Notes under the pieces: model-generated
The model's database searches: none
Told to the model about the DNA's origin: nothing
Seen by the model: only the letters and a program-made list of their open reading frames with translations
Program-made: the position numbers and the translations under genes
Shown: positions 3,574-21,547 of the stretch, piece by piece
Numbering within the stretch: the first letter of the stretch is position 1
Layout: the number at the start of each line of letters is the position of its first letter
IMG/VR virus record: IMGVR_UViG_3300045988_043806
Length of the DNA stretch: 60,400 nt
Origin: a virus
Reading direction: 5' to 3' (one strand)

Positions 3574-3588
3574 TTTCTCATCCTCCTG

Positions 3589-5744: not shown

Positions 5745-5749
5745 GATTT

Positions 5750-6211: not shown

Positions 6212-6232
6212 ATCCTGTAACCATCCTCTATG

Positions 6233-6475
6233 TCAGTTCTCTTCGCTTTGCCCTATACTATTAGCAGGTTGATAAATGGCGTCGTAATCATTGCTGATTC
6301 CCAGGCAATCGCTCACTTTGTTTACTGCCGGTTGGCTGTAAATCCTGCCGTTAATAATTGAGGATAAATATGGTCTTGCCAGCCCGGTTTTTGTTGCCAG
6401 CTCGGACACATCCATGTCCTTGTCAATTAAGGTGTGCTTTACCAACTTGCACCAAGGCGGAAGTCTTTTCTTCAT
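6233..6475 (-). CDS. Cro-like small HTH regulator
   Basis: 80 aa. HTH at VSELATKTGLARPYLSSIING. First gene of the minus-strand early operon, divergent from the cI-like gene. Confidence 0.65.
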   Translation of the reverse strand: MKKRLPPWCKLVKHTLIDKDMDVSELATKTGLARPYLSSIINGRIYSQPAVNKVSDCLGISNDYDAIYQPANSIGQSEEN

Positions 6476-6659
6476 CTCGCACCCTCCCTTTCTCGGTTCC
6501 GCTTATTCTTTACTTTTGTAAGGTTCTCATGTAAAATAATGAGTATGTAATCTTTATTTCATTCTCAAATGCATCTTACATTGGTAACTATAACTCATAG
6601 TTTTGAATAGGTCAACCCCTGTAACGCATTTTTTTGAGTTTTTATTTTAGGAGGTCATT
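6476..6659. promoter_or_regulatory. divergent lysis/lysogeny switch region (promoters and operators)
   Basis: 184-nt AT-rich gap between divergent HTH genes. Palindrome AACTATAACTCATAGTT at 6586..6602. ATGTAA at 6529 and 6545 with inverted TTACAT at 6576. Confidence 0.55.
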
Positions 6660-7019
6660 ATGTTATACGATAGATTTCGTGAAGCCTGTGAAAAGCGAGG
6701 CACTACAATAACACAAGTTCTGCGTGATATAGGGCGTGCAGAGGGAAATACAGGGAGCTGGAAAGCAGGAAAATCCCCGAAACTGGACATTGTTATGGAA
6801 ATGGCTGAACACCTCAACATGACATTGGATGATTTTGTATATGGCGATAATCCACCTATCGCAAAACCATCAACGCAAAATAGTGAGTTATCCGATATGG
6901 AGCAGGAACTTCTTGAGGTTTTCTCCCACATACCGGCGGACAGACAGCAACTGTGTCTGGACTTCTTACGCACTCATATGGTCCAACCCGAAAAGTATGC
7001 CGACAAGATGAACGCGTAA
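6660..7019 (+). CDS. cI-like XRE-family repressor
   Basis: 119 aa. HTH at TTITQVLRDIGRAEGNTGSW. GGAGG RBS. Divergent from the cro-like gene and co-oriented with the integrase. Confidence 0.75.
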   Translation: MLYDRFREACEKRGTTITQVLRDIGRAEGNTGSWKAGKSPKLDIVMEMAEHLNMTLDDFVYGDNPPIAKPSTQNSELSDMEQELLEVFSHIPADRQQLCLDFLRTHMVQPEKYADKMNA

Positions 7020-7087: not shown

Positions 7088-7273
7088 ATGTCAAAAACTG
7101 ACAATATCATAAAGCTGTATGAGCCATCATCCAAAGGCAATGACAGCGAGCGTGATGCTTACGTTCAGGAACTCCAACGTTTGCTCGCTTGCTATCAGCT
7201 TGCCAGTTCAGATGATAAAAATGTCGTTTGGGCAGTGCTGAACAAATATGCACCGCATATCAACACGATATAG
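7088..7273 (+). CDS. hypothetical protein
   Basis: 61-aa ORF between repressor and integrase. No recognisable domain. Confidence 0.4.
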   Translation: MSKTDNIIKLYEPSSKGNDSERDAYVQELQRLLACYQLASSDDKNVVWAVLNKYAPHINTI

Positions 7274-7298
7274 CCCCAGGCATGGGGCTTTTCTTGTT
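7272..7298 (+). terminator. rho-independent terminator candidate
   Basis: AGCCCC-aggcat-GGGGCT stem-loop followed by TTTTCTTGTT. Confidence 0.6.
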
Positions 7299-7314
7299 GT
7301 ATGGGAAAATCATT

Positions 7315-9054
7315 ATGAGAAATAAATCATTGGCAGGAAGAGCCAATAACCGGGCAGAACGCCCTCGTAAGGTTGCTATTTACATTCGTGTATCTACAAC
7401 CCATCAGATAGATAAGGATTCTCTGCCGATGCAGCGCAAGGACCTTATCGCATATTGTGAACTTATCCTCGGCATTGAGGATTACGAAATATTTGAGGAT
7501 GCAGGGTACTCCGGGAAAAACACCGACCGGCCTGCGTTTCAAGAAATGATGCAGAAAATACGTGCCGGCTCATTCTCCCATTTACTTGTCTGGAAGATAG
7601 ACCGTATCTCTCGTAATCTTCTGGACTTTGCAGAAATGTACGAAGAGCTTCAATCCCTGCGAGTAACTTTTGTCAGCAAAAATGAGCAGTTCGATACTTC
7701 AAATGCTATGGGTGAAGCTATGCTCAAAATCATTTTAGTGTTTGCGGAACTCGAACGCAACATGACATCGGAGCGTGTTACTGCAACAATGATTTCAAGA
7801 GCTAACCAGGGATTGTGGAATGGCGGCAGGATTCCTTATGGATATTCCTACGATGCGGAAACTTCTGCGTTCTCCATCATCCAGGATGAAGCGGATGTGT
7901 GTCAGCTTATGAAAACAGATTATTTTGAGCATAAATCCATTATTCATACTGCCAGGTTACTGAACGATAAGAAAATTCCTACCCGGTCAGGTGCGCTCTG
8001 GTCCCCTACTGCGGTATGGAAAATACTGTCCAGTCCTTTTTACGCCGGTGTCTACCGGTACAACCATTACAAAGGAACTGAAAACAGAACTCTCAACCCG
8101 GAGGAAGAATGGGTGCTTGTCCCAGACCATCATCCTGCAATATTCACTTTGGAAGAACACGAAAAATTATGTGATATTCTTGATGCGAACAAAAGAACCG
8201 CCAATCTTCCAGGGCGAAAACACCGGGCAAAAAATGTGTATGTGTTCTCCGGCATCCTTTATTGCGGAAAATGTGGTAATAAACTGGTTTCCACTCCCGG
8301 CAGATTGCAGGCAGATAATTTCCGCACTACCACTTACTCATGCCCGAAAAAGAGGAAAACGCACGAGTGTGATAATCCATCTGTAAATGATTTGATTGTT
8401 GGAGAATTTGTTATAAATTATATTTTGAATATGCTCAACGCAAAAAGTTCTTTTTCCTCCATCAACTCCCCTGCGGAACTTGAAGAGCGTTTGCTTTATG
8501 GTGGCTCATTCAAGGACGTGCAGCATATCTCGGAAGATGGTCTGAATGAATTTTACAATCTTCTATCTCGGTACGGCTCGGATAGTTCCTATGTCTTTGC
8601 TGTAAAACACCCTCGCAAGAAAAAGGCTGCTGTCAATCCAGAAGTCGAAGCTCTCCGTAAGGATAAGGAAAAGCAGGAACGTGCCTTGAAGCGATTGCAG
8701 GATTTATACCTTTATTCCGAAAGAGCAATGACCGAAAAGGATTTCATCATACAGAAAAATGAAATATCCTCCAGGATTCAGGACATTAACACCCGGCTTG
8801 GTATGGTTACGCACGATGCCAATTCCACATTATCGGATGAGGATTTTGTGCGGCAAGCAAGCCATCTCCTCATTACGAAAAAACTCATTGGTCGGGATTA
8901 TATTTATTATAAAGCCCTGGCACAGACCGTTTCGCCGGATGTCCTCAAAATATACATGGAAACTATTTTAGATTCTGTTTATGTGATTGATGGGCGTGTT
9001 TCCTCCATCGTGTTTAGAAATGGTCTTACTCATACTTTCATATACCAAAAATGA
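7315..9054 (+). CDS. int: large serine recombinase (phage integrase)
   Basis: Resolvase catalytic domain (VAIYIRVSTTHQ...YSGKNTDRPAFQ...VWKIDRISRN), recombinase domain, Cys-rich zinc ribbon (CGKCGNK...CPKKRKTHEC) and C-terminal coiled coil. Start taken at MRNKS (7315), not the track start 7228. Confidence 0.9.
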   Translation: MRNKSLAGRANNRAERPRKVAIYIRVSTTHQIDKDSLPMQRKDLIAYCELILGIEDYEIFEDAGYSGKNTDRPAFQEMMQKIRAGSFSHLLVWKIDRISRNLLDFAEMYEELQSLRVTFVSKNEQFDTSNAMGEAMLKIILVFAELERNMTSERVTATMISRANQGLWNGGRIPYGYSYDAETSAFSIIQDEADVCQLMKTDYFEHKSIIHTARLLNDKKIPTRSGALWSPTAVWKILSSPFYAGVYRYNHYKGTENRTLNPEEEWVLVPDHHPAIFTLEEHEKLCDILDANKRTANLPGRKHRAKNVYVFSGILYCGKCGNKLVSTPGRLQADNFRTTTYSCPKKRKTHECDNPSVNDLIVGEFVINYILNMLNAKSSFSSINSPAELEERLLYGGSFKDVQHISEDGLNEFYNLLSRYGSDSSYVFAVKHPRKKKAAVNPEVEALRKDKEKQERALKRLQDLYLYSERAMTEKDFIIQKNEISSRIQDINTRLGMVTHDANSTLSDEDFVRQASHLLITKKLIGRDYIYYKALAQTVSPDVLKIYMETILDSVYVIDGRVSSIVFRNGLTHTFIYQK

Positions 9055-9281: not shown

Positions 9282-9845
9282 CTATTCCTCATAAATAAAT
9301 CCGTTGTCTGTAAGGTATATGTATCCGTATGGTTCCGCTATGCATCCATCCGTATCCAGTTTCCCATATACGGCACAAGCATAATATGAGCCGGCATGAA
9401 CTATCCCGGTGCCATCTCCACATTTAATTACGAACCATCTGTATCCGCTGTTCCTCACAACCTCTTCGGCGAACGCTCTGTACTCCTCCTCTGATATTCC
9501 CTTTAAGGTGTCTTTGTCAACCTCAATGTATGCCATCAAGCTATCGCCTACTATTTTGGATTGCAACTCTGCATCAATCAGTGGATTCCCTGTTTCATTT
9601 TTCCCCGGTATGATAACGCTTTCCGGAACTTCCTGCGCACTTTCTTGAGTTTTTGAATCGCTTTCCTGGGTTTTGCATACATTTTCTTCGATTTTGATAA
9701 CATTTTTTGTATTTTCCTGCGTGATTCCATATTTCTGCGCTATCATCTGTTTTCTTTTTTCGGCACTATTCTTGCTTATAGCAAAGGCGGCACATACAAG
9801 TACCGCCACAATTACAAGAACCGCCATTGCTCTTGCTTTCTTCAT
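9282..9845 (-). CDS. membrane-anchored/secreted hypothetical protein
   Basis: Start at MKKARAMAVLVIVAVLVCAAFAI (AAAGGAG RBS). Signal-anchor, Ser/Glu/Thr linker, Cys-containing C-terminal domain. Last gene before the putative attP. Confidence 0.55.
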   Translation of the reverse strand: MKKARAMAVLVIVAVLVCAAFAISKNSAEKRKQMIAQKYGITQENTKNVIKIEENVCKTQESDSKTQESAQEVPESVIIPGKNETGNPLIDAELQSKIVGDSLMAYIEVDKDTLKGISEEEYRAFAEEVVRNSGYRWFVIKCGDGTGIVHAGSYYACAVYGKLDTDGCIAEPYGYIYLTDNGFIYEE

Positions 9846-9859
9846 TCTCTCTGCTCCTT

Positions 9860-10087
9860 TTAAGCTAATATTTTGTAATTTTGGATATGTGATACCCGGA
9901 ACAAACACGTTTTGCATACTCCATAATCATCTGTCAAGAAGTAATAGTTCTTCGGCAAATACAGGTTCGGGTCGTTCCGATATCGTTCATCTCCCGATTT
10001 TCTTAAATATCCCTCGTATTCTGCTCCGTCGAATAGTCTGACCTTTATTCTTCGTCCCAGGTTTTCTTCCAGTGCCTTTCTATTCAT
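9860..10087 (-). CDS. hypothetical protein
   Basis: AGGAGG 6 nt before ATG 10087 (MNRKALEENLGRRIKVRLFDGAEYEGYL...). No confident domain. Confidence 0.5.
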   Translation of the reverse strand: MNRKALEENLGRRIKVRLFDGAEYEGYLRKSGDERYRNDPNLYLPKNYYFLTDDYGVCKTCLFRVSHIQNYKILA

Positions 10088-10352
10088 CCTGCGCCTCCTG
10101 TATTGTTTCTCCTCTGGCATACGCATTGAAAGCATCCTCAAGCCCTATTTTTTCTATCACAACCATCAGACCATATGTAAGTTTTACTAAATCGAACGCT
10201 TTTATATTCAACAGTTCTACGCTTAAATCGTCACTGCCGTTTTTCAGGTCTACACAGCATCCTTGCTGAATTTCTTTCGTGCTCCCATCGTCATACGTTA
10301 CCGTAATCCCTGCAACTTCCTTGTCTTTTTCCTTGATTGTATAATCGTCCAT
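10080..10352 (-). CDS. hypothetical protein
   Basis: 90-aa ORF in operon context. No recognisable domain. Confidence 0.5.
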   Translation of the reverse strand: MDDYTIKEKDKEVAGITVTYDDGSTKEIQQGCCVDLKNGSDDLSVELLNIKAFDLVKLTYGLMVVIEKIGLEDAFNAYARGETIQEAQDE

Positions 10353-10379
10353 CGTTATTCCTCCTGCCTATTTATCCTT

Positions 10380-10619
10380 TTATTTTTTTCGGTAAACTTT
10401 TTTCCTACGCTCCCTGCCTCTCTTGCACTTTATCGGGCAATCAGGCATTCGCCTTTTGTCAGCCTCCCCGGTATCTAGCCGAACTTCACTTCCGGTTATA
10501 TAGCATCCAGCAAATTCTACATCCGCCATTGGAGCCGTCCAAAAAGGACACCATGTGCATGATTCAGGCAGATGCTCCGCCTTAATTTTGAAACCGAATT
10601 TTTCATAATTTGCAAGCAT
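10380..10619 (-). CDS. Cys-rich small hypothetical protein
   Basis: 79 aa with CTWCP...C...CPIKC and a basic tail. Confidence 0.45.
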   Translation of the reverse strand: MLANYEKFGFKIKAEHLPESCTWCPFWTAPMADVEFAGCYITGSEVRLDTGEADKRRMPDCPIKCKRGRERRKKVYRKK

Positions 10620-10639
10620 TGATATTTCTCCTCATAATT

Positions 10640-11053
10640 CTAATTGAACGGTAAGCCGGTATCATCATCTGGGACGCTCATAAAACCATCGCCATTCGGA
10701 GTTGGCATCTGATCGGTTCCCTGTGCTTCGCTACTTCCTTTGCTCTCTGCGAACTCCTGCTCCTCCACTGTTATTTCAGTGGTATATATTTTCTGACCAT
10801 CCTTGTTTGTATAACTTCCTGTTGTGATTCTTCCAGAAATAACAACTTTTGTTCCTTTTCTGAAATACTTCTCGGCAAACTCCGCCTGTTTTCCAAACAC
10901 TACGCAAGGGATGAAATCTGCTGTTTGTTCTCCCTCTCTTTTGAATTTTCTGTCTACCGCAATAGTGTATCTTGCTACTGCTGTATTGTTCCCCTGCGAA
11001 TATCTAACTTCCGGGTCGCGCGTAAGGCGGCCTATCTCGATTGCTTTATTCAT
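10640..11053 (-). CDS. ssb: single-stranded DNA-binding protein
   Basis: 137 aa. OB-fold pattern IGRLTRDPEVRY...ARYTIAVDR...FIPCVVFGKQAE and an acidic C-terminal tip DDDTGLPFN. Confidence 0.9.
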   Translation of the reverse strand: MNKAIEIGRLTRDPEVRYSQGNNTAVARYTIAVDRKFKREGEQTADFIPCVVFGKQAEFAEKYFRKGTKVVISGRITTGSYTNKDGQKIYTTEITVEEQEFAESKGSSEAQGTDQMPTPNGDGFMSVPDDDTGLPFN

Positions 11054-11126
11054 TTTTAGCCTCTCTTTCTTTTACCAGCAACTAACTGATGCACCATATT
11101 TCCGAGCCAGCTTGCGGCTATAACCT

Positions 11127-11714
11127 TTAGTACCCCCCCCCGATTGTAATATAGGCTGTTCTTCTGCTGTTCATCTTTACATCTACAGGACTACCGCAAG
11201 TAAAGCATTTATAAGTAAATTCCGCAGTATTCATATTTGTCATGTACTTAAATTCATTGCCACACTTGCATTTCGTATAAAGCGGTTTAAGGTTTACCAG
11301 TTCCGTTTCTTTGCCACATTCACATTTATAGGACTTGATTTTTTCTTTTGCACAGAATCCTTTTTCCTTTCCGCATTTATCGCATTTGATATACAGGAAC
11401 CCTTTGTATCCGTCAGGATGTTCCATATCCTGCGGCTCTTCGGTTTTCTCTGGTTCTTTCTTCCATCCAGTACCAAACAGGCTGTCATTCCGGCTGTGAG
11501 GCTTTTCCTGCATTCTTTTCACAAATTCTTGTGCTGTGATACTTTCCTTGATTTCCTCTTCCTTTTCAGCTTTGATACCAGTATTATCCTCAACACCGTC
11601 AATCGCTTTGATTTTATTATGGAATCTCACGGCGTTATTAAGAAGTGACATTGTATCCGCATCGTCCATCTGAAATGTATTTTCTCCATATCCACTAATA
11701 ATTTTAACTTCCAT
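11127..11714 (-). CDS. zinc-ribbon-containing hypothetical protein
   Basis: 195 aa with repeated CxxC pairs (CDKCGK, CECGK, CKCGN, CFTCGS). The C-terminal IGGGY is encoded by a G9 tract. Confidence 0.55.
   Translation of the reverse strand: MEVKIISGYGENTFQMDDADTMSLLNNAVRFHNKIKAIDGVEDNTGIKAEKEEEIKESITAQEFVKRMQEKPHSRNDSLFGTGWKKEPEKTEEPQDMEHPDGYKGFLYIKCDKCGKEKGFCAKEKIKSYKCECGKETELVNLKPLYTKCKCGNEFKYMTNMNTAEFTYKCFTCGSPVDVKMNSRRTAYITIGGGY
11133..11141. repeat. C9/G9 homopolymer tract
   Basis: Nine consecutive C on the plus strand, inside the last codons of the 11127..11714 gene. Confidence 0.95.
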
Positions 11715-11725
11715 CTTTTTTCTCC

Positions 11726-12247
11726 TTACTGTCTGTTTTTCTGCAAATCGTAAATAATTCCATTTACCGTATCAACCCACCGTTCCAGTTCTTTCCAGTC
11801 TTTCTGTTCCCCTGCAAAAGGTCCAAGGAGCAGTAGCCTCTCAGATGCAGATAATCCACTCGACTTAAACTTCTTTTCATTTTTCAGCAAATACTCTTCA
11901 CATTTTCTGTAAGTCTCCTCATCAAATGGCTTTCTTTCATGCTCATATGCACTGTATTCAGCCGGACTGCAACCGGCAATCTTTGACATTTCCATCATCG
12001 ATATTTTTGCGTCTTTCCGTAATGCTGCTATGTACCCTGCGTACATTCTTTTTCGGCTGTTCAGATTCTGGATTCTGAATCTTTCCTGCATGGCTTTTGT
12101 TTCTGTAACCTTAATCAGTTGCCGTACTTCGCATTTCTCATTCTCGCAATCATGTACAAAGCCGCTTTTTCCGTTTTCTCCATCCCAAAACCCGACAACG
12201 TGTTTGGTCGGTTCATTGCATCTTTCACATTTTGTATTTAACAGCAT
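11726..12247 (-). CDS. hypothetical protein with N-terminal zinc ribbon and central HTH-like segment
   Basis: 173 aa. CERCNE...CENEKC, then ISMMEMSKIAGCSPAEYSAYEHERK, which resembles an XRE HTH. Confidence 0.5.
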   Translation of the reverse strand: MLLNTKCERCNEPTKHVVGFWDGENGKSGFVHDCENEKCEVRQLIKVTETKAMQERFRIQNLNSRKRMYAGYIAALRKDAKISMMEMSKIAGCSPAEYSAYEHERKPFDEETYRKCEEYLLKNEKKFKSSGLSASERLLLLGPFAGEQKDWKELERWVDTVNGIIYDLQKNRQ

Positions 12248-12250
12248 TTC

Positions 12251-12589
12251 CTAGTCCTCCCTCGGCTTATTCAAAACATCCAGATGCTTTATCAAGCATT
12301 GCACGCATCCTATCTGCTGAAATCCTGGTTTGCATACCATTTCCACCGGTATAGGGCAACTATGAGCATTTGAGATAATGTATTCTGCAAGAGCTTTTTC
12401 TCCGGCTTTCGCCTTTTTCAATCTCTTGTCCGCCGCATCCAGGCGATTATCTACATGACCTATGAAATCTACCATTATCCGCATGGTTTCTTTGCAATAT
12501 TCTTCGTTGATTCGGTATTCCTCATGTGTGAAATCATGCAGGAATAGGTCTATTCGCCGTTTCAACTCATTTTTATTTTTTATATCCAT
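12251..12589 (-). CDS. hypothetical protein
   Basis: 112-aa ORF in operon context. Confidence 0.5.
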   Translation of the reverse strand: MDIKNKNELKRRIDLFLHDFTHEEYRINEEYCKETMRIMVDFIGHVDNRLDAADKRLKKAKAGEKALAEYIISNAHSCPIPVEMVCKPGFQQIGCVQCLIKHLDVLNKPRED

Positions 12590-12701
12590 CTTTTCTGTGC
12601 CTCCTGCATTTTACAGAACACTTGCGGCAGCAATATTTCTTTCCTGGAATATCCGTCTGAAATATCTTCCTGCAATACAAGCACTTTCTTTCCTCCATCT
12701 T

Positions 12702-13289
12702 CTAGCCTCCACTCATATCGAATAGGTCAAATAACGTAAGCTGTCCGGTAGGCAGTACCTTTTCTTTGGGAATCTCTTTCAGGTATTCCTCAATCTGTTT
12801 GCGACAATATTTAAAACTGTCCTGGTATCTTTCCGGGCGTTCGTGCCGCCTCATTCCGACATAATCATTCCCATTGATAAAACTCTGCAATCCTGTAATA
12901 TATCCCATGACCGCACCGATATGGCACTGTTCTTTTTGCCTTTCGTTCAACTTCCCAAGATTCTGCATGATAAAAATATAATTTTCATCTGCCTTATAAA
13001 CCAAGAGAGAGCTTTTAGCATTTTCCCTGATTTCATCCATCCTCGCCATATAATAATTGTCTACCTGCGGCGGTGTTTCTCTGAAATATTCTTTCGGGTA
13101 GTCCTTTTCTTCCAACTCCTCCTGGCACTTCCGCTTGTCATATATGATATGGTTCCGCACAATGTTCATGTTGAAGCCATCTTCATATAATGGGTCGCTG
13201 CCTCCATGCGTGTTGAGATATTCCCATCTTTGAAAATCTTTCTGCAAATTTTCCTGCAATTCCTCTGCTCTCGTCCTTTTCTTCGCCAT
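12702..13289 (-). CDS. hypothetical protein
   Basis: Start taken at MAKKRTRAEEL (13289). No recognisable domain. Confidence 0.5.
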   Translation of the reverse strand: MAKKRTRAEELQENLQKDFQRWEYLNTHGGSDPLYEDGFNMNIVRNHIIYDKRKCQEELEEKDYPKEYFRETPPQVDNYYMARMDEIRENAKSSLLVYKADENYIFIMQNLGKLNERQKEQCHIGAVMGYITGLQSFINGNDYVGMRRHERPERYQDSFKYCRKQIEEYLKEIPKEKVLPTGQLTLFDLFDMSGG

Positions 13290-13313
13290 TCTGCGCCTCT
13301 TTTCTATCCCCTC

Positions 13314-13335
13314 CCCGGCATCCATGGGTGCCGGG
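13314..13335 (-). promoter_or_regulatory. DGR target-recognition hairpin downstream of VR2
   Basis: Coding-strand CCCGGCA-CCCATGGA-TGCCGGG about 20 nt past the stop codon. Near-identical to the hairpin at 28166..28187 downstream of VR1. Confidence 0.6.
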
Positions 13336-13355
13336 ATGAGAAGATTGATAGATTT

Positions 13356-14222
13356 CTATGCAATGGTACAAGCCGGAGCGCAGCGATAAGCCCAGTTCGC
13401 GCCGTTGTAGTCGACGTAACCATCGGAGTGCACACACCACGTACGGTTCGAGGTGCTCCGAGAAGCCGAGCGGGTCCAGTGTCGGCAGGTGTTGCCATCC
13501 TCTGTGAATTTCACTCTGTTCGCCTTATTTTCATAAAATTCGTATGGTGTTTCCTCCGGGTCGAACTCCTCTTTTGAGAGTAGGAAAAACAAATCTTCTG
13601 TCTGTTCTCCATTGCTGTTGTTTTTCTTCACTTTTGCCAGGTAAGGAATGAGGTCTGCAAATCTTTCTTTGAACTCATCACTCTGTAAATATTCTCTCAG
13701 CTCGGAATCCGCCCATACATTACTGCCGTAATCTCCTTTTGTATCGAACTCTCTCGCCTCAATCGCTACATGAGCCTGGATTGTCATGCTATGGTCAAGC
13801 GTTTTGTCCGCAAGTTCCTCCACATCAAAGCCGATAACATCGTATGGAACCTCTTTTCCGTCAAACATAATCCAGATTGTATCTCCAACCGAAACATGGT
13901 TCTGGATTTCTCCGTTTCTAATAAGTGCTCTTAATTCATCCAGCGTAAATGTTTTCTTGTATTTATGTGTGATGTTCAGCTCTTTTCCGGTATCTTTTGA
14001 CTTTTCATGCTCCTGGTCCGAATCCACACCAGGCATGGCGCAGTTGCAAAATGGATGCAACGGTTCTGCGCATACTGCCTCTGCTAATTTCTGTGCCGTT
14101 TCGTTTACTCTTCCTGCCGCAAATTCCAGAAACGCATCTCTTTCCCTCTTGATAAACTTCTTGCTGCCTACTGCCTCCATACGGAATCCGTATGCACTTA
14201 ATCTGATTGAATTGATACTCAT
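13356..14222 (-). CDS. DGR variable protein 2 (C-type-lectin-fold/DUF6273-like, non-structural context)
   Basis: AGGAGG RBS before ATG 14222. The C-terminus WTRSASRSTSNRTWCVHSDGYVDYNGANWAYRCAPACTIA aligns to the TR with adenine-only differences. No signal peptide seen. Confidence 0.8.
   Translation of the reverse strand: MSINSIRLSAYGFRMEAVGSKKFIKRERDAFLEFAAGRVNETAQKLAEAVCAEPLHPFCNCAMPGVDSDQEHEKSKDTGKELNITHKYKKTFTLDELRALIRNGEIQNHVSVGDTIWIMFDGKEVPYDVIGFDVEELADKTLDHSMTIQAHVAIEAREFDTKGDYGSNVWADSELREYLQSDEFKERFADLIPYLAKVKKNNSNGEQTEDLFFLLSKEEFDPEETPYEFYENKANRVKFTEDGNTCRHWTRSASRSTSNRTWCVHSDGYVDYNGANWAYRCAPACTIA
13368..13472 (-). repeat. DGR variable region VR2 (105 nt)
   Basis: Aligns codon for codon with TR 27564..27668. 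All 14 mismatches are at TR adenines. Confidence 0.85.
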
Positions 14223-14238
14223 TCTTTTTGTCCTCCTG

Positions 14239-14550
14239 TTATTCGATATGTTTTGTTTCTCCTGCAAAGCAATTTCCGCAGAACCGGTATATGCCTTTCT
14301 CCACCCTTTCAAAAGTCGGGAAAGTGTCACGCTCCGTTCCCATCTCATCGTCCATCACTCTGCTGTATGGCGCACCCACCTGCAAGTATCCATCTCTGTA
14401 TATTCTTGGTGTTGTGACATCCATAAAATATATGAATACGCTTTCATCCACCAGGTCACCCGGTTTCGCATAATCATACCAGCTATATTGGCAATTACCG
14501 TTTGCCTCTCTTTCCCAGTCTTTCATGGTCTTGAGCTTTCTCCGATGCAT
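14239..14550 (-). CDS. hypothetical protein
   Basis: ORF in operon context. The start is uncertain (14550 or 14526). No confident domain. Confidence 0.45.
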   Translation of the reverse strand: MHRRKLKTMKDWEREANGNCQYSWYDYAKPGDLVDESVFIYFMDVTTPRIYRDGYLQVGAPYSRVMDDEMGTERDTFPTFERVEKGIYRFCGNCFAGETKHIE

Positions 14551-14764
14551 TTTCAGCCGCCTTTCTGTATTCACTTACTATGTAGCTGTCCGCATGGAAT
14601 CCGTTCAGGATATTAACTGCCTGTAATTCCGTTATTCCGCATCGGTTCTGTAACTCAATTCTTAATTCTCTTCGCTCCCTTATGTCCTGCCCTGCTGTGT
14701 CCGGCAGAGCTTTTGCACGTTTCCGGTATTCTTCTACAATCGCCCTTGTCAAAAGTTCTGCCAT
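14495..14764 (-). CDS. hypothetical protein
   Basis: AGGAGG before ATG 14764 (MAELLTRAIVEEYRKRAK...). Resembles small proteins seen in Firmicutes mobile elements, but the family was not confirmed. Confidence 0.45.
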   Translation of the reverse strand: MAELLTRAIVEEYRKRAKALPDTAGQDIRERRELRIELQNRCGITELQAVNILNGFHADSYIVSEYRKAAENASEKAQDHERLGKRGKR

Positions 14765-14778
14765 ACCTCTGTTACCTC

Positions 14779-15702
14779 CTATACGCCCGAAGCAGACGTT
14801 TTCTGTAATTCTGTGATAACTTCTTTCAAAGCATATTTGCCATTCGTTGTAAGCTGCCTCTGCCAGCATCCATTCTTCGGTGACCATCTGAAACCATGTT
14901 TTTTTACAATATCCCCTGTTTCTTCATCCGGTTTTCCATCAAAGAAAAGCTGTAATCTCATAAGGTCTGTATTTTCTACCACTTTGAAGAAATCGTTCTC
15001 TGTTTCCTTAGTTCCTGCCTCTTTTGCCTTTTTCAGTCTTTCCAGTCTTGCCTTGGTATTTTTGATTTTTGCATTATTGTTTGAAAGCTGATACCCTGCG
15101 AATGGTGCATCGCTCAAATGCCAACTTTCTGACATAGCCTTTTTCAATTCTTCCTGCTGTGAAACGGAAAGTTCCGGGCATCCCTCGACTGTTTTGTGCT
15201 TTCTCCAATATGCATTGACCGCTTTCATTCTGTCCTGAAGCTCTGTAAGGCTTTCCAGCTTTTCCTCCAACATCTCAATGGCCTGTGCGTCCCCGGATAA
15301 AATCGGCTGGTTCATTGTGAGCAGATTTGTAATCTTCTTTGCATAGGATTCCAGGCTGTTCCACTCCTGCATGAGTGAATCCCTGCGGCTGTTCTGCTTG
15401 TTCTTTTTCTTAACCGAGAAGTTACCGGCTCCAGAAATCAGAACTGACGGACAGCTCGCTTCGTTTCTGTAGTAGGAATTGTAGTATTCCGCCAGCTTTT
15501 TGCTGTATCTCCCTGCCATTCTCTCTGCCTTTTCAGCAAGGTTCGGTCTTTTCTGTTTGATTTTCTCAACAACCGCATAGACACTCTCCACTCGCTTGCG
15601 GTATTCCTCTGTTGCGCTGCCCTGCTTATAATCACTCATTGAATTGGCATCGTTGGCGGCTCTTGCCATATCCTCGCTGATTGTATAGAACTGAATCTCC
15701 AT
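14779..15702 (-). CDS. DUF3560-like protein
   Basis: 307 aa. C-terminal MRLQLFFDGKPDEETGDIVKKHGFRWSPKNGCWQRQL motif, typical of DUF3560 proteins of plasmids, ICEs and phages (recalled from memory, not searched). Confidence 0.5.
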   Translation of the reverse strand: MEIQFYTISEDMARAANDANSMSDYKQGSATEEYRKRVESVYAVVEKIKQKRPNLAEKAERMAGRYSKKLAEYYNSYYRNEASCPSVLISGAGNFSVKKKNKQNSRRDSLMQEWNSLESYAKKITNLLTMNQPILSGDAQAIEMLEEKLESLTELQDRMKAVNAYWRKHKTVEGCPELSVSQQEELKKAMSESWHLSDAPFAGYQLSNNNAKIKNTKARLERLKKAKEAGTKETENDFFKVVENTDLMRLQLFFDGKPDEETGDIVKKHGFRWSPKNGCWQRQLTTNGKYALKEVITELQKTSASGV

Positions 15703-15959
15703 TATTCGTCCTCCTCCATTTTTAAGATTGTTCTGTGCTCATATTTCATCGTTGCCTGTGAATCTTTGAACTTTGAAAACTCCCAATCTGAATTGTAAGG
15801 ATGGAAGTTAAGGTATCCATCACTGCCAACTGATATGCTCGCTGACATTTCCTCGCCATTCCCTTTTAATGCCTCCTGAATTGCTTTCAGGTGCGGATAT
15901 ACTGCTTTGCATAATTCCTCGAACTGTTTCTCTGTCATTTCAATTTTTTCTTTGCTCAT
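15702..15959 (-). CDS. hypothetical protein
   Basis: 85-aa ORF, start-stop coupled to the next gene. Confidence 0.5.
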   Translation of the reverse strand: MSKEKIEMTEKQFEELCKAVYPHLKAIQEALKGNGEEMSASISVGSDGYLNFHPYNSDWEFSKFKDSQATMKYEHRTILKMEEDE

Positions 15960-15976
15960 TTTTGTGAGTTCCTTTC

Positions 15977-16216
15977 TTATTCTGCTGTTGCGTGGAAGAA
16001 CATTCTTTCCGCTTCCTCTGCTCCCTCTTCCGCATCCATGATACCGGCTGCCATCTCATTCAGGATTGAGCCAACATACAATGCCTGTAATGCTTTTCCT
16101 GTCTGAATCAAAATCATCTGTACGCCGTTGTTTTCCTTGGCTGTAGCGGTTGCCCCTGTTCCATATAACCTGTTTTCGACTGCATTCATAAGCTCTTTGA
16201 ATAATCCCATCTTCAT
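15977..16216 (-). CDS. hypothetical protein
   Basis: 79-aa ORF. AAGGAGG RBS. First gene after promoter cassette P1. Confidence 0.5.
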   Translation of the reverse strand: MKMGLFKELMNAVENRLYGTGATATAKENNGVQMILIQTGKALQALYVGSILNEMAAGIMDAEEGAEEAERMFFHATAE

Positions 16217-16231
16217 GCCTCCTTGTGTTGT

Positions 16232-16287
16232 AACTCACTATATTGAGTTGTTTGAGTATATACTAACACGTAGTAGGTAGGTGTCAA
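16232..16287 (-). promoter_or_regulatory. promoter cassette P1 (-35 TTGACA, -10 TAGTAT) with downstream inverted repeat
   Basis: Minus strand TTGACA(16287..16282)-N16-TAGTAT(16265..16260), then AACTCA-N6-TGAGTT (16232..16249). About 40 nt are near-identical to P2 and similar to P3. Confidence 0.6.
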
Positions 16288-16320
16288 TACCTTTATTCAC
16301 AAAATCTCAATTTTTTGAGT

Positions 16321-16641
16321 TTACTTTTCAGGTGGTACTATTTCGAGAGAATATCCCATAGAATTTATGACGTGCTCAATAATTATGAATCTTGCAGAAT
16401 CATCCTCTGTATCAGCCGCTATATCTTCCAGCTTTGTTATATCCGGCTTTCCATCCTGCGTCAGTTTAATTTCAAAACCAAGACCGTCCGCAATTTTTTT
16501 GATTGTTCCATAGGTTGGTGATACTCCCACATTCAGTTTGTACCACAGATTCTGCCTAGTCCATCCGATACGTTTTGCCGCCTCCTCGTATGTGATACCA
16601 TTATCGAGCATATACTGCTTGAATTTTTCTATAATATCCAC
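16321..16641 (-). CDS. HTH DNA-binding protein (candidate regulator of the repeated promoters)
   Basis: 106 aa. HTH at ITYEEAAKRIGWTRQNLWYKLN. Last gene of the P2 operon. Confidence 0.6.
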   Translation of the reverse strand: MDIIEKFKQYMLDNGITYEEAAKRIGWTRQNLWYKLNVGVSPTYGTIKKIADGLGFEIKLTQDGKPDITKLEDIAADTEDDSARFIIIEHVINSMGYSLEIVPPEK

Positions 16642-16644
16642 TGC

Positions 16645-16839
16645 CTACACCTCCACAAAATTGAATTTTGGATGTTTCTTTCGCTCCTCGCATTTCTGGA
16701 ACCACTCCTGCACCTTTTCTGCACAGAAATCTTTCCCGGCTGTATATTTCCCACTCGAAAAAATAATGCCACTTTCACTGTCAATTTCGTGAATCCAGTA
16801 CACATATCCCCCCATAATTCGGTTGTACTGAAATTTCAT
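16645..16839 (-). CDS. hypothetical protein
   Basis: 64-aa ORF. Overlaps the upstream ORF by 59 nt. Confidence 0.4.
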   Translation of the reverse strand: MKFQYNRIMGGYVYWIHEIDSESGIIFSSGKYTAGKDFCAEKVQEWFQKCEERKKHPKFNFVEV

Positions 16840-17026
16840 ACCACTTTCCGAATCTATCGGTCGGAAATGTCAAGAAATCGCATCCCGGCTTTTTGGTGTA
16901 GTCAAGCTGCATCTGGTCGAATATCCAATCTGCCAATTCGTCCAGATTTTCAAACGTCTTGTCGAACGCTTTCTGGTTATAATCGTTATAATACTTTACG
17001 ATTTTTGCTGTTATCATTACGCACAT
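16781..17026 (-). CDS. hypothetical protein
   Basis: 81-aa ORF. The C-terminal part overlaps the next ORF, so a frameshift relationship is possible. Confidence 0.4.
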   Translation of the reverse strand: MCVMITAKIVKYYNDYNQKAFDKTFENLDELADWIFDQMQLDYTKKPGCDFLTFPTDRFGKWYEISVQPNYGGICVLDSRN

Positions 17027-17316
17027 TCCTCCTGGTATTTATATTTTATGCCCTGCATATTCTCTTCCCATTTGGCAGACTCGGGCGTTAATTTTACGAA
17101 CTGTTCTACAATCTCTAACAGTTCATCTTCGTCCAGTTCCGCCATCGGGCAGCCGTATTTGCTTTCCAACTCTTCCTGCTCCTCATCCAGGAACAGATAG
17201 TCCTCTCTCAATGGCGGCGGCTCTTCATCATCCCACTGGCTCCGCCTGCGTGGTGGGTTTTCAAATTCTTCTCGCCTGCGCTCCCAGTATTCGTCCTTAT
17301 CCGGTATATTCCACAC
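17017..17316 (-). CDS. hypothetical acidic protein
   Basis: GTG start at 17316, 6 nt after AAGGAGG. The longer track ORF (to 17436) would overlap the upstream gene by 119 nt. Confidence 0.45.
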   Translation of the reverse strand: MWNIPDKDEYWERRREEFENPPRRRSQWDDEEPPPLREDYLFLDEEQEELESKYGCPMAELDEDELLEIVEQFVKLTPESAKWEENMQGIKYKYQEECA

Positions 17317-17317
17317 T

Positions 17318-18072
<755 letters not shown>

Positions 18073-18105
18073 GCTTCTGCCCTCCCTCCATTCTGTATCT
18101 GCCTC

Positions 18106-18618
18106 TTAATCGAGGCAGACTTCCTGTGAAATTGTGTACTGTTCTTTTAATTTATCGAACGCTTTATTGGTTACTCGGTATTCGTTCCAGCCTACCCGGT
18201 AATGCCCCGGTGTGCAGAAATCCTTATCCGTATATTTTTTCAGGAATGTAATTCCCCGGCCTTTGATTTCCAGTGGCGTATCAATAAACCAATGACCGCC
18301 ATAATATCCCCGGCTCGCCTCCATCTGGCAATCAGGCTTTGCGCCTCCCATCTCCGGCGTATACTGATACACCCCAGGTTCGGTTGCCTCCTGCGACTCC
18401 TGCTTTTCTGGCTGTGTCAGCTCCAGGCGTTTTCCTCTGCCAATCCTGCGAAGAGTGTACATCTCTTTTTCAGAAATATATCCTTTCTGAAAAAGCTGTT
18501 CTACGCTTTCAAGATAGAAATTGCAGGATTCTAAAGAATCGCAAATCTCAAATAACTGAATCAGATTGTTATAACCGTTGCTATGTTGTACCGGAAACTG
18601 GATAATCTGTGCTGCCAT
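18106..18618 (-). CDS. hypothetical protein
   Basis: 170-aa ORF. AGGAGG RBS. First gene after promoter cassette P2. Confidence 0.55.
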   Translation of the reverse strand: MAAQIIQFPVQHSNGYNNLIQLFEICDSLESCNFYLESVEQLFQKGYISEKEMYTLRRIGRGKRLELTQPEKQESQEATEPGVYQYTPEMGGAKPDCQMEASRGYYGGHWFIDTPLEIKGRGITFLKKYTDKDFCTPGHYRVGWNEYRVTNKAFDKLKEQYTISQEVCLD

Positions 18619-18653
18619 GATTTTGACCTCCTACTCACTTTTGTGTGTTTCAT

Positions 18654-18700
18654 AACTCGTTCTTATGAGTTTAATATAACACGTAGTAGGTAGGTGTCAA
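18654..18700 (-). promoter_or_regulatory. promoter cassette P2 (-35 TTGACA, extended -10 TGTTATATT) with inverted repeat
   Basis: TTGACA(18700..18695)-N16-TATATT(18678..18673), immediately followed by AACTC-N8-GAGTT (18654..18671). Confidence 0.6.
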
Positions 18701-18734
18701 TACCTTTATTTACAAAAAGCTCAAAAAATGAGTT

Positions 18735-19013
18735 TTATTTCTTTTCCTTGCTTTCCTCTGGATTTTTCTTAGGTCTGCCTCCAAGTTTTCCTCTTTCCTG
18801 CTGTTTCCGGCAGTATTCTTTTCTTTCCTCGGTTTCCATATCCATTTTTGTCCGAATGAATATAAATGCCATATCCGCCGCCGCACTCAAGTCTTTTGGT
18901 TCTTCGCCCCTCCATCTGTAAATCATAAGCGCTTTGAAGAGTGTCCCCATATCTCTATCGCTCAACGTCATTACCGGCTCTGCAATATCAGGGTGTAGAA
19001 TTAAATCCTCCAT
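18735..19013 (-). CDS. small paralogue of the replisome-organizer N-terminal domain (DUF6291-like)
   Basis: 92 aa. MAFIFIRTKMD...ERGKLGGRPKK parallels MAFSFIRSQLK...RNGKLGGRPKK of the 1089..1787 product. Confidence 0.5.
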   Translation of the reverse strand: MEDLILHPDIAEPVMTLSDRDMGTLFKALMIYRWRGEEPKDLSAAADMAFIFIRTKMDMETEERKEYCRKQQERGKLGGRPKKNPEESKEKK

Positions 19014-19025
19014 GCCTCACGCCTC

Positions 19026-19295
19026 CTATCTGCCTTTCTTGATTCTATCTGCCTTTGTTTCTGTTGCCTCGCTTTGAAGAAATTTCTTTATTCCCTCTCT
19101 GCAATACTGTCCTGTGTACGGATTCGGACACGCTCGCTCGCCAGCTTCATGTGCAATCGCATCATCATAAATACAGTACGCGCATTTCTTGAATGCCCCT
19201 CTCAATATTGCACTTGCTATCGCATCATCGCTTGCACTGTTAAGCATTTCCCTTACTGTCATAGCTCCCTGTACCTCCTGTTCTGAATAAATCAC
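19026..19295 (-). CDS. hypothetical protein
   Basis: 89-aa ORF in operon context. Confidence 0.45.
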   Translation of the reverse strand: MIYSEQEVQGAMTVREMLNSASDDAIASAILRGAFKKCAYCIYDDAIAHEAGERACPNPYTGQYCREGIKKFLQSEATETKADRIKKGR

Positions 19296-19512
19296 ACGCC
19301 ATCATAAAGCCTGCGATGAATCCCTGCTTTTCTCTGCTATCTCCATACTGGACCATACTGTCCCATATATCGCCCTGCAATTTCATAAGGCTGTTATCTG
19401 CTTTGCTGCATATATTTCTAAACTGGCGAATCGCCTCCTGCTCCTCTCCGCTTTCTGCGCTCTCCATGCGCTCATCGACATATGCCTGATACAGTAAATC
19501 AATCGTTCTCAC
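19240..19512 (-). CDS. hypothetical protein
   Basis: 90-aa ORF. The 3' end overlaps the next ORF by 56 nt. Confidence 0.4.
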   Translation of the reverse strand: MRTIDLLYQAYVDERMESAESGEEQEAIRQFRNICSKADNSLMKLQGDIWDSMVQYGDSREKQGFIAGFMMACDLFRTGGTGSYDSKGNA

Positions 19513-19531
19513 TTTCCGCCCTCCTGTTCCG

Positions 19532-19708
19532 TTATCCTAAGTAATCGTACCTTGTGTGCCAGTGGTATTGGTAAAATCCATTGGCAGGGTTAATCCCCTC
19601 GTACCGTTCTCGCCATTCTTTCAACATTTCCCGATATGTAAACAGCTCTCCTGTTTCTTTATTCCGGTACAGTTTCGCCGGCTGTTCGCCGGTATTTTCT
19701 TTATCCAT
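19532..19708 (-). CDS. small hypothetical protein
   Basis: GGGAGG RBS before ATG 19708 (MDKENTGEQPAKLYRNKETGELF...). The longer track ORF is probably an upstream extension. Confidence 0.4.
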   Translation of the reverse strand: MDKENTGEQPAKLYRNKETGELFTYREMLKEWRERYEGINPANGFYQYHWHTRYDYLG

Positions 19709-20375
19709 CCTGCTCGCCTCCCTCTTCCGGTAAATACTCAACTTTAATGTGAGCCGCCATGAAGCAATCAGGTTCTCCGTCAAATTCGTTGCCTGCGGAT
19801 GAGTTGAGCGTATCTCCTCTTTCCTCGCAGCACTCTCTCGGACTGCAACAGTCTGTATTCTTCCAGAGCTTTCCGTTTTCATCCTCATACACGTACCGTC
19901 CCCAATCATCCCTGCCGATATATTTCAGATGCAATGTTTTAATCTTTACAGCAGCCAATTCATAATTGATAACATCAAAATGTCCGAGCGGCTTTTTGTA
20001 TTCGATATAGCCCCATGCCTGGCAGCCTACTTCCTCAACAAACTTTTTATTGTCGAAGTTCTCAATCTCCAGGACTTCGTTATTTTTTGGCTTCGGGTAT
20101 CCTCCCGGCATGATTGGACGCTGTGTGCTGTAATACCTGTACCCTGCCGGGGAGATTTTCTTTTCTTTCGCATCAGGGTAATGTGCTATGACATCCTGTT
20201 TCGCATCCTCTATTGTTTTGAATGGTCCTGTCCCTGCGGCTCCTTTTCCCTTGTCCTCATCATAAAGAAAATGATTGTGGTATCCATCAACGTCCTGGAC
20301 TATTGCGATATGATTCACGTATCCATCATCCATATGCAGTGCTGAATGAAACATTGCTACAATATTCGCCATCAT
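19701..20375 (-). CDS. hypothetical protein (polyvalent-protein-like domain?)
   Basis: 224 aa. The YRYYSTQRPIMPGGYPK motif resembles domains of large polyvalent proteins of conjugative elements and phages (family uncertain). Cys-rich C-terminus. Confidence 0.5.
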   Translation of the reverse strand: MMANIVAMFHSALHMDDGYVNHIAIVQDVDGYHNHFLYDEDKGKGAAGTGPFKTIEDAKQDVIAHYPDAKEKKISPAGYRYYSTQRPIMPGGYPKPKNNEVLEIENFDNKKFVEEVGCQAWGYIEYKKPLGHFDVINYELAAVKIKTLHLKYIGRDDWGRYVYEDENGKLWKNTDCCSPRECCEERGDTLNSSAGNEFDGEPDCFMAAHIKVEYLPEEGGEQDG

Positions 20376-20425
20376 TTGTATGTCCTCACTTTCTGCCCTC
20401 GTACCCTCCGGGGCGGGTAACTGTT

Positions 20426-20740
20426 TTATAATTCAAATGCCATTGCTGCATCTTTCTCCGATGCTCCCTGTTCCATGCAGGCGTTGTATCTCATCAACTG
20501 CCGTTCCTCTTTAATCTCCCTGATTCTCTTTAAGGTTGGCCAGTCCACCAATGCGCCCACGCAATACGCCTTTTCCATAAGCTCCTCGACTTCGCTGATT
20601 CTTTCCTGGACCTCATCCCACTGCTCGTCTGTATATGTGTGTGCCGGTGCCTCCTGCATGTCAATTTCGATGCATTTCAGCTTATCGTGCATCGAATACA
20701 GGTTGAAATGTTCGCTCTCGTTTACTCTGTACTTTTTCAT
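20426..20740 (-). CDS. hypothetical protein
   Basis: 104-aa ORF in operon context. Confidence 0.5.
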   Translation of the reverse strand: MKKYRVNESEHFNLYSMHDKLKCIEIDMQEAPAHTYTDEQWDEVQERISEVEELMEKAYCVGALVDWPTLKRIREIKEERQLMRYNACMEQGASEKDAAMAFEL

Positions 20741-20754
20741 CAGCTCTGCTCCTC

Positions 20755-21243
20755 CTAAAACATAGTATCAAGAATCCTCTGGATAAGTTTTTCGCTTTCC
20801 TCAACCAACTGTTTGTTATGTCTGTTGTCCTGCACAGCCTGCTTAAATTCTGCGCTATCCGGATTGTCCGCAAATTCAACAATTTTTCTGGCGGATTCTT
20901 CTGTTCTTCTTATCGCCTCCGCCTTGCTATCAATAAGAATAGCTTTTATTGCGCCAGCCTCTTCCAACGTGAGAACTTTCTGTTCAAGTTCTTCGACAGT
21001 TCTCTTCTCTGCTTCATAATCTTTCACTGCACTTTCGTACATTTCTTTATATTTTGCTGCCTCTGCCGCCGAACTTTCGGCTCTCTGTTTCATGCTGCAT
21101 CCGAAATCATTTTCAATGTTTCCCTCGGCAATTTCAAAGCATCCCTCAAATGCCATGCTGATATAGCTATCCTCTCCAAGGTCTGTCACGATTTTTTTGA
21201 TTTTTTCCAACGCTTTCCGTTCCTGCTCTTTGGTTGCTGCCAT
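20755..21243 (-). CDS. hypothetical coiled-coil protein
   Basis: AGGAGG 8 nt before ATG 21243 (MAATKEQERK...). The track start 21282 is a GTG without an RBS. Confidence 0.5.
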   Translation of the reverse strand: MAATKEQERKALEKIKKIVTDLGEDSYISMAFEGCFEIAEGNIENDFGCSMKQRAESSAAEAAKYKEMYESAVKDYEAEKRTVEELEQKVLTLEEAGAIKAILIDSKAEAIRRTEESARKIVEFADNPDSAEFKQAVQDNRHNKQLVEESEKLIQRILDTMF

Positions 21244-21290
21244 CTCTATGTCCTCCTGCATTCCGCTCTTGATTTCTTCCACCGCCCTGC

Positions 21291-21337
21291 TATAATAAAA
21301 GGGTAAGGCTTGGCGGTGGCAGGAACCGCCTTACCCT
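21291..21337 (-). terminator. intrinsic terminator between leader ORF and the P3 operon body
   Basis: Minus strand AGGGTAAGGC-N18-GCCTTACCCT (10-bp stem; the loop holds a nested GGCGG/CCGCC pair) followed by TTTTATTATA. Confidence 0.6.
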
Positions 21338-21358
21338 TATTACGGATTGGAAACCCTC

Positions 21359-21502: not shown

Positions 21503-21547
21503 TTTAAATTCCTCCATGTACTCTTAACCTCCTGCCTTGGTTTATTC

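Follow-up and report, generated by a model that had tools for sequence, protein, structure and literature searches.

Diversity-generating retroelements (DGRs) are, to our knowledge, the sole dedicated protein-hypermutation systems of prokaryotes, and in phages they have been understood nearly wholly through the switching of tropism by tail fibres. What does such an element serve when it also writes into a gene that lies far from the tail? The question is raised by a virus record of IMG/VR (IMGVR_UViG_3300045988_043806; 60,400 nucleotides (nt), the whole of which is called the window below), where a gene at 13356..14222, here named T2, carries a further copy of the sequence that the DGR shares with its tail-side target, T1. 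As argued here, T2 is very likely a second, in-trans target of this single DGR, now diversified, which supplies a variable binder made in a separate early/accessory block. The parts on which the argument leans are these:

13356..14222, minus strand: T2, the remote DGR target gene, 288 amino acids (aa), with a predicted disordered N-terminal ~85 aa, a beta subdomain (86-153) and a DUF6273 domain (155-287)
13368..13472, minus strand: VR2, the variable repeat (VR) of T2, codons 251-285
26341..27462, minus strand: DGR reverse transcriptase (RT; Pfam RVT_1 E=1.8e-10, PHROG reverse transcriptase E=8e-74)
27564..27685, minus strand: template repeat (TR), flanked by the genes for Avd and RT, with 27564-27668 common to VR2 and the 5' 17 nt common to VR1 only
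27715..28173, minus strand: Avd accessory protein (PHROG 'Avd protein of DGR' E=7.6e-9)
28207..29427, minus strand: T1, the cassette-adjacent primary target, 406 aa, DUF6273, directly after the baseplate and tail-collar-fibre genes
~28222-28346, minus strand: VR1, the variable repeat of T1, one codon longer than TR

A repeat search returned three copies in register, at 13368-13472 (VR2), 27564-27668 (TR, 87% identity) and 28222-28326 (VR1), with 14,196 nt from TR to VR2. Aligned base by base, VR2 and TR agree over 105 nt with 0 gaps and 14 mismatches, and 14/14 of these fall at TR adenines (29 A in the 105 nt), a restriction with a hypergeometric p=8.5e-10. This reproduces what a preliminary description of the locus had read from its letters, and the codon changes listed there were all correct, AAT>TAT at residue 279 being additionally present. 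It had placed the repeat in the last 35 codons of the gene; 35 codons is right for the repeat, yet three more (T-I-A) separate its end at codon 285 from the stop. It had also counted GAT>GCT among the mismatches at TR adenines, and the base does lie at one, but this 14th mismatch (TR GAT, VR GCT, residue 284) does not vary: every genome has it in both VR1 and VR2, as do 32/32 protein variants examined. Its invariance leads us to regard it as a fixed mark that tells target from template (initiation of mutagenic homing sequence, IMH, versus IMH*) and not as a change that mutagenesis is still producing. VR2 is without the 5' 17 nt over which VR1 is homologous to TR.

That VR2 is being rewritten emerges from genomes which, compared over VR2, are otherwise ~99% identical. 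One of them, MT835491 (GenBank, human faeces; locus L001), shares 99.1% identity with the window over 26 kb, with its differences concentrated in VR2 and VR1, and in a three-way alignment each VR2 difference sits at a TR adenine. Near-identical copies at three other loci (L002, L004, L005) differ from the window by 16-19 bases within the 105-nt VR2, 15-19 of them at TR adenines, as against 1-2 differences in the remaining 762 nt of the T2 gene. On a larger scale, clusters of T2 protein at 90% identity, drawn from a collection of 5.8 billion proteins, hold 9373, 5803, 1972, 868 and 725 distinct sequences. We scored variation column by column in an alignment of 32 T2 members and called a column strongly variable when its entropy was > 0.8; within the repeat such columns are residues 254, 257, 259-261, 263, 265, 269, 271-274, 276 and 279. 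All of them correspond to adenine-containing TR codons, adenine-free TR codons show at most one variant sequence, and variation is lower at residues 256 and 267, whose codons likewise hold adenine. On per-codon variation in these 32 natural variants the hypervariable part of the gene reads:

VR2 codons 254, 256, 257, 259-261, 263, 265, 267, 269, 271-274, 276, 279: hypervariable codons

Codon 256 is in addition a natural marker of transfer. TR position 27653 is A in the window (AGC) and G in the TR of MT835491 (GGC), while VR2 position 13457, in codon 256, carries A in the window and so encodes Ser256, where the other 31/32 variants have Gly and the VR1 of the window has G; Ser256 is the outcome that TR-to-VR2 copying in this lineage would predict. 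As for the kind of residue gained, Y/N/S/G/T dominate at AAY codons and I/L/F/V make up 4.4%, and A>T changes number 109 at codon position 1 versus 17 at position 2, which we ascribe to selection that keeps the binding surface soluble and functional, although a context bias of the RT is conceivable. All this makes it almost certain in our eyes that T2 is a DGR target, and VR2 is, to judge from these comparisons, an active target rather than a relic. The second remote target of the same TR that had been proposed is genuine and diversifying, as seen in the VR2 differences between genomes.

Both targets share sequence elements at and beyond the 3' end of the repeat:

13368..13385, minus strand: invariant GC-rich 3' block of VR2, CGCTGCGCTCCGGCTTGT, IMH-like, differing from TR solely at the fixed C/A of residue 284
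13314..13335, minus strand: putative DGR target-site hairpin (cruciform), CCCGGCA-CCCATGGA-TGCCGGG, 32 nt downstream of VR2
28166-28188, minus strand: hairpin downstream of VR1

The window and MT835491 have the same 3' block in both of their repeats, VR1 and VR2, all variants agree with it, and VR1 is followed ~30 nt downstream, at about the same spacing as VR2, by a near-identical CCCGGCA-N8-TGCCGGG hairpin. In T2 homologues of ~50% identity a GC-rich hairpin stands right after the stop codon with differing stems (TGCGCCGC/GCGGCGCA, ACGCCCTGTA/TACAGGGCGT, CCCCGGGCAA/TTGCCCGGGG), and its retention despite the changed stem sequences argues for a structural requirement. In work on phage BPP-1 (Guo et al. 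2011) a target-site hairpin is said to promote homing; the VR2 hairpin matches it and may play a comparable part here. Indeed, the likeness to BPP-1 is broader. Its DGR reportedly moves TR into VR in an adenine-specific manner by means of RT and Avd (the accounts being those of Liu 2002 and Guo 2008/2011; see also PMC10743442), and its target, Mtd, is said to be a protein of C-type lectin fold whose C-terminal VR ends 3' in a GC-rich IMH, with a hairpin downstream. Adenine-specific transfer, RT and Avd, a C-terminal VR, a GC-rich IMH-like end and a downstream hairpin all have their counterparts in our locus, whereas BPP-1 has a single, cassette-adjacent target at the tail-fibre tip, unlike T2, which lies outside the structural module and has no detectable sequence match to Mtd.

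A few observations on the repeats and their surroundings deserve a place of their own. The codon by which VR1 exceeds TR sits in an (AAC)4 run, and the VR2 alleles P0074, P0084, P0001, P0005 and L008/L009 have +1 or +2 codons in the same run, which suggests slippage on the AAC repeat in cDNA synthesis or integration. Frameshifted VR alleles (P0025, P0027, P0032 and P0068; L059 10001-10960) are read past the hairpin and on into the gene that follows, with a C-terminal ...AAPRLVPLHNHIIPAPADAGKKKERKEH..., and the P0025 cluster (191 members) is found on prophage-sized contigs. P0108, a homologue from the L013 lineage, has a C-terminus (...NVNNNNAINANRCAPDCVVLRT) that is TR-like and Asn-rich, with the 'PDC' of TR instead of 'PAC', and is probably a VR/TR assembly chimera or a TR copy read as protein. 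Upstream of the TR-homologous stretch, at a distance of 11 nt, are three neighbouring substitutions (13483-13485, CGA versus TCA, Arg247/Ser); the population has both forms of this residue (Ser being that of L001, P0076, P0080, P0089 and P0098), which lies outside the TR-derived positions. On the other side of VR2, the first ATG (13325) of the open reading frame (ORF) downstream of T2 falls within the hairpin loop, and the ATG at 13289, which follows AAGAGG, is the more plausible start.

What sort of protein is being varied? The T2 gene has AGGAGG 8 nt upstream of its ATG at 14222, and homologues begin at the same Met. Because the T2 frame is conserved in all homologues, an antisense ORF (13786..14616, plus strand) and two ORFs overlapping VR2 (13183..13440 and 13304..13498) were rejected as genes and taken as non-coding. 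Pfam finds DUF6273 at residues 155-287 (E=4.6e-12; 46.6 bits versus a gathering threshold of 23.5), and in a comparison with all window ORFs T2 residues 86-160 match T1 residues 39-111 (E=0.002); with DUF6273 in both, the sequences mark T1 and T2 as paralogues with unlike N-terminal segments. For the first ~85-90 residues of T2 the genome offers no paralogue, and Pfam and PHROG no family, fibre and baseplate families included; the segment is predicted to be disordered save for one helix. In the T2 family about half of the members are short forms of ~205 aa without it.

An AlphaFold2 model of full-length T2 scored a predicted local distance difference test (pLDDT) of 62.8, with the N-terminus and the VR <50, and a fold search of the PDB with it was uninformative. 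With a deeper alignment, residues 86-288 reached a pLDDT of 94.9 and a predicted template modelling score of 0.91, and Foldseek placed this model in the PDB closest to the DUF6273 N-terminal domain of the Thomasclavelia ramosa immunoglobulin A (IgA) peptidase (9qa6; E=1e-6, template modelling score 0.60), next to the C-terminal domain of Legionella Lcl (E=0.03) and then to many classical C-type lectins with weak scores. When the family profile was compared with the sequences of the PDB, the sole hit, apart from a match to CpcN dismissed as a spurious repeat match, was a short DUF6273 motif in the IgA protease 9qa6; Mtd was left unmatched. Nor does T2 fit the description of Tentaclin (Baykov 2023), in which an N-terminal DUF6273 with the VR is followed by immunoglobulin-like domains: T2 is a single DUF6273 with a C-terminal VR and without such domains. 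Neither a signal peptide nor a lipobox nor a transmembrane segment was found in T2, its highest 19-residue Kyte-Doolittle mean being 0.67 and that of T1 0.78, so that a hydrophobic segment is present in neither. For T2 and nine neighbours PADLOC returned 0 matches to defence systems (10 proteins), and an NCBIfam scan of the same set gave nothing useful.

Where the gene lies is best seen on the map of the genome, which we built from PHROG and Pfam scans of the window proteins. Its source is a temperate contractile-tailed phage (myovirus), a gut prophage; nearly every gene in the window is on the minus strand. The assembly is circular with 60,345 bp, and window bases 1-55 are an exact direct repeat of 60346-60400 (repeat search), which may stand for a circularly assembled genome or a short terminal redundancy. 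The main modules are:

197..6973: recombination and replication early genes (DnaC-like, DnaD/replication-initiator-like, exonuclease, RecT, regulators)
7228..9054, plus strand: large serine integrase
9282..22883, minus strand: accessory block, 13 kb, mostly small genes, with the lysis genes on one side and attR on the other
23069..24955: holin and endolysin
29658..30041: tail-collar-fibre-like gene
30044..34341: baseplate genes
34992..39617: putative tape measure, a 1541-aa ORF assigned by size and position alone, outside the family scans
40973..42379: tail sheath
45609..46646: major capsid protein
51348..52793: large terminase subunit

A prophage of Clostridium sp. OF09-36 (NZ_QUMD01000005) is 99.6% identical to the window from 24229 to 9183. 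Because this similarity ends at window ~9183 (with the prophage boundary taken from L002), attP can be placed just past the integrase gene (~9183), and the 13-kb block therefore corresponds to the right arm of the prophage, from the lysis genes to attR. No tRNA gene was found in the window or in the ~6 kb host-side flank of L002. In the phage collection the only near relative is the unannotated MT835491 and no named phage is closely related; tblastn of T2 against this collection matched only MT835491 and MT835477. Elsewhere on the map, a 320-aa protein with weak radical-SAM matches is encoded directly upstream of the terminase genes (53281-54243, minus strand), and the best PHROG of the 502-aa endolysin (23069-24577), phrog_20388, also matches the C-terminal ~70 residues (356-426) of the tail protein at 33049..34341, a common region that looks like a cell-wall-binding or lytic module.

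Within the accessory block T2 is closely packed between two genes of unassigned function, and the block has the following further features:

10640-11053, minus strand: single-stranded DNA-binding protein (SSB)
11726-12247, minus strand: helix-turn-helix (HTH) protein
14779-15702, minus strand: DUF3560 protein ('primase' by its PHROG name)
15702-15959: weak YezG-like match
16253-16304, 18666-18717 and 21569-21620, minus strand: 52-nt promoter/operator-like repeat, TTGACA-16-TAGTAT with TG (predicted, near-consensus)
16321-16641, minus strand: HTH protein, immediately upstream of one copy of the 52-nt repeat
18735-19013, minus strand: DUF6291 protein
19701-20375, minus strand: DarA_C ('defence against restriction A, C-terminal') protein, 224 aa (Pfam E=5.6e-22)
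23011..23047, minus strand: strong terminator-like hairpin, 16-bp stem and T-run, directly after the endolysin gene (pattern match)

The terminator-like hairpin is predicted to part the late operon from the accessory block, and T2, 9 kb past the lysis genes and behind this site, is not in the late structural operon. The 52-nt repeat has three copies genome-wide, all in the accessory block and none near the lysogeny switch; the copy at 16253..16304 heads the predicted transcription unit that holds T2 (start ~16287 by pattern match). An imperfect palindrome (ACACGTAG..GTAGGTGT) spans the promoter spacer of the element, and the three copies look like a repressor-controlled regulon for the block. 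DarA counts among the anti-restriction/DNA-establishment proteins of phages and conjugative elements (PMC5512222); to carry that label over to other genes of the block would be our own reading.

Seen against this map and the models above, the preliminary description fares unevenly. It was right to set T2 outside the virion module and among genes of the phage and conjugative-element type (SSB, DUF3560, DarA_C, HTH) and to see no transmembrane segment. Its 'accessory/early-type block' stands, though this is not the replication module of the phage (197..6973); it lies between the lysis genes and attR. That T2 is 'apparently cytoplasmic' does not follow from a missing signal peptide, which T1 lacks too and which virion proteins do not need. 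The modelled fold is lectin-like, as it expected, at weak scores to C-type lectins, and the VR occupies the domain's C-terminal end; no fibre-like N-terminal homology, which it had named as part of a refutation, was seen in the other proteins of the genome or in the Pfam and PHROG families.

The survey of related phages that it suggested shows the remote small target to recur. Among loci L001-L057 the T2 homologue has an SSB gene a few kb downstream in 43, and an RT within 10 kb only in L044, where T1/VR1, Avd, TR and RT lie 9.7 kb away and 11/11 VR mismatches fall at adenines of the locus's own TR. More distant homologues have early or replication settings as well. In L062 the gene has a repressor/cro/antirepressor region on one side and SSB, ERCC4, Phage_rep_org_N and DnaB on the other; in L061 it stands upstream of the terminase with SSB on one side and REP_ORF2-G2P, VRR_NUC and ParA on the other; in L058 it comes immediately after a divergent HTH repressor; and in L059 it precedes ParB_N, SSB and integrase genes. 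This ParB_N gene has no detectable relation to the gene downstream of T2 in the window (12702..13289). In the Toutatis record, gp24 lies between an integrase/repressor region and replication-initiation and antiterminator genes. Across the loci examined the small DUF6273 target is consistently an early/accessory gene and is never in a structural module, nor, in the divergent phages, does it adjoin the RT gene.

A diversified protein of this sort had been called unusual for a phage, a judgement that the literature does not sustain: remote second DGR targets of this kind have been published, and the T2 locus is a further case. A close parallel is the Roseburia intestinalis phage Shimadzu, whose VR1 belongs to a tail gene and whose VR2 falls in orf43/44, of unassigned function; both were shown by experiment to be modified (Cornuault et al., 10.1101/575076). 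Like our phage it is a temperate myovirus whose host is one of the gut Clostridia, with the VR1 gene placed right before the RT, a distant second VR and changes mainly at TR adenines. There modification was measured, whereas for the window diversification comes from comparative data; a sequence relation between Shimadzu and T2 was not detected in the collections searched, the Shimadzu genome itself being outside the comparison. In Toutatisvirus (Faecalibacterium) one TR likewise serves two DUF6273 targets, the small one, ~17.5 kb away, being a core gene (10.1101/2024.10.15.618418). In this gp24 (215 aa), as in T2, the VR is C-terminal within DUF6273, and the two proteins are related at the level of the Pfam family only (BLASTP E=0.05); the large Toutatis target, unlike T1, lies downstream of the RT and is of the Hoc-like or tentaclin kind. 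Lelie/CP11, too, have DUF6273 targets described as 'large and small', whose roles were termed intriguing (PMC11792537). In Quimbyvirus a distal DGR target was deemed non-structural and part of a 'defense-related island' (Benler et al. 2021, PMC8008677); here the likeness noted is one of arrangement and domain, namely a second remote target and C-type lectin domains in both Quimbyvirus targets, whereas host (Bacteroides), RT (frameshifted) and placement of the second target (opposite strand, by methyltransferases and a nuclease) differ. For Mushuvirus a 2026 preprint reports a DGR-diversified DUF6273 protein that lysogens express and that turns up in the secretome (10.64898/2026.05.08.723808). 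A large metagenomic DGR survey was blind to remote targets by design (PMC8144416).

How, then, might one template serve two genes, and to what end? On the BPP-1 paradigm, TR RNA would be reverse-transcribed with misincorporation opposite adenines, and the cDNA would replace the homologous stretch in either target, T1 or T2, by retrohoming. Both seem to be tagged alike, with the invariant GC-rich 3' block one base off TR and, ~30 nt further downstream, the GC-rich hairpin. With ~16 VR2 codons rewritten, roughly 10^16 proteins would be possible. The rewritten codons occupy strands and loops at the C-terminal side of a C-type-lectin-like DUF6273 domain, from which we infer that the product is a variable ligand-binding protein, most likely a soluble one that is made inside the infected or lysogenic cell and works elsewhere than at the tail-fibre position. 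Its timing of expression, its location off the virion and its binding function are put forward here in this same conditional sense. That T2 is a non-virion product made with early/accessory genes is, in our view, rather likely and the better-supported reading, one that rests on context.

Several points weigh against it, some of them in favour of T2 as a virion component, that is, a second receptor-binding protein or adhesin which docks on tail or capsid via its N-terminal ~85 residues and widens host range or adherence. T2 is paralogous to the tail-side T1 beyond the VR (the E=0.002 match and DUF6273 in both), T1 is likewise without a signal peptide, and the best fold matches in BFVD are phage DUF6273 proteins, some labelled tail-collar fibre or receptor-binding protein. 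Receptor-binding roles have been proposed in the Toutatis and nd4/nd12 papers (10.1101/2024.10.15.618418; PMC10743442), the Toutatis authors favouring one for the gp24-type target, and the Dar proteins of P1 are encoded outside structural operons yet packaged in the virion (PMC5512222). To these must be added that the timing of T2 expression is read from consensus promoter and terminator matches and from gene neighbourhood, that the diversification of VR2 is drawn from comparison between genomes, and that one related lineage has many frameshifted VR alleles (the P0025 cluster, 191 members), so the small-target protein can be lost, at least in prophages or lysogens. We nevertheless hold a place in the virion to be unlikely, if by no means far-fetched: T2 lies outside the late operon, past the terminator-like hairpin and with its own predicted promoters; in four or more divergent phage groups its homologues stand among early/replication genes and never in structural modules; its N-terminal 90 residues have neither a genome paralogue nor a fibre or baseplate family match; and in Shimadzu the VR2 alleles were under weaker selection than the VR1 alleles during infection (10.1101/575076).

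It seems quite improbable that T2 is instead a soluble lectin of lysogenic conversion, or one released on lysis, that acts outside the cell on bacterial or mucosal glycans. The position between lysis genes and attR is the classical one for a moron, T2 has its own predicted sigma-70 promoters and a lectin-like fold, and the Mushuvirus secretome protein offers a DUF6273 precedent (10.64898/2026.05.08.723808), but T2 is without signal peptide, lipobox and transmembrane segment, and in other phages its homologues sit in the middle of the early/replication operon and not in a moron position. The chance that VR2 is a dead relic, or resembles TR by accident or as a recombinational duplicate of VR1, is next to nil. 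The lack of the 5' 17 nt would suit it; the adenine restriction, the limitation of hypervariation to adenine codons among near-identical genomes, the transfer of a lineage-specific TR base to VR2, the frame kept in the window-lineage alleles examined and the depletion of hydrophobic residues among variants all speak against it, and the comparison with L001, the 32-variant alignment and the counts for L002, L004 and L005 refute it. Within the preferred reading of T2 as a non-virion product, a bolder and speculative version sees the T2 family (28 representative clusters at E<=1e-30, long forms and short ones together) as early, cytoplasmic, DGR-diversified binders, in effect an intracellular hypervariable 'intrabody'. 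It is suggested by the constant placement of these genes by SSB, recombination, replication and anti-restriction-type genes (DarA_C, DUF3560, ParB_N, PcfJ), unlike the tail-side paralogue, and we think it doubtful. Such a protein may neutralise variable host defence proteins, exclude competitor phages or be delivered with the DNA in the manner of Dar.

For a field in which phage DGRs have stood for tail fibres, the T2 locus provides a well-documented second diversified binder outside the virion module, backed by thousands of natural variants and by cis elements and synteny that divergent phages of Clostridia have kept. That small targets of the T2 type consistently keep to early/SSB/replication neighbourhoods sharpens the question of their ligand and of the site where they meet it, a question open to test because a cultured lysogen, Clostridium sp. 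OF09-36, exists. An intracellular binder of host or competitor factors would, if true, be of high interest.

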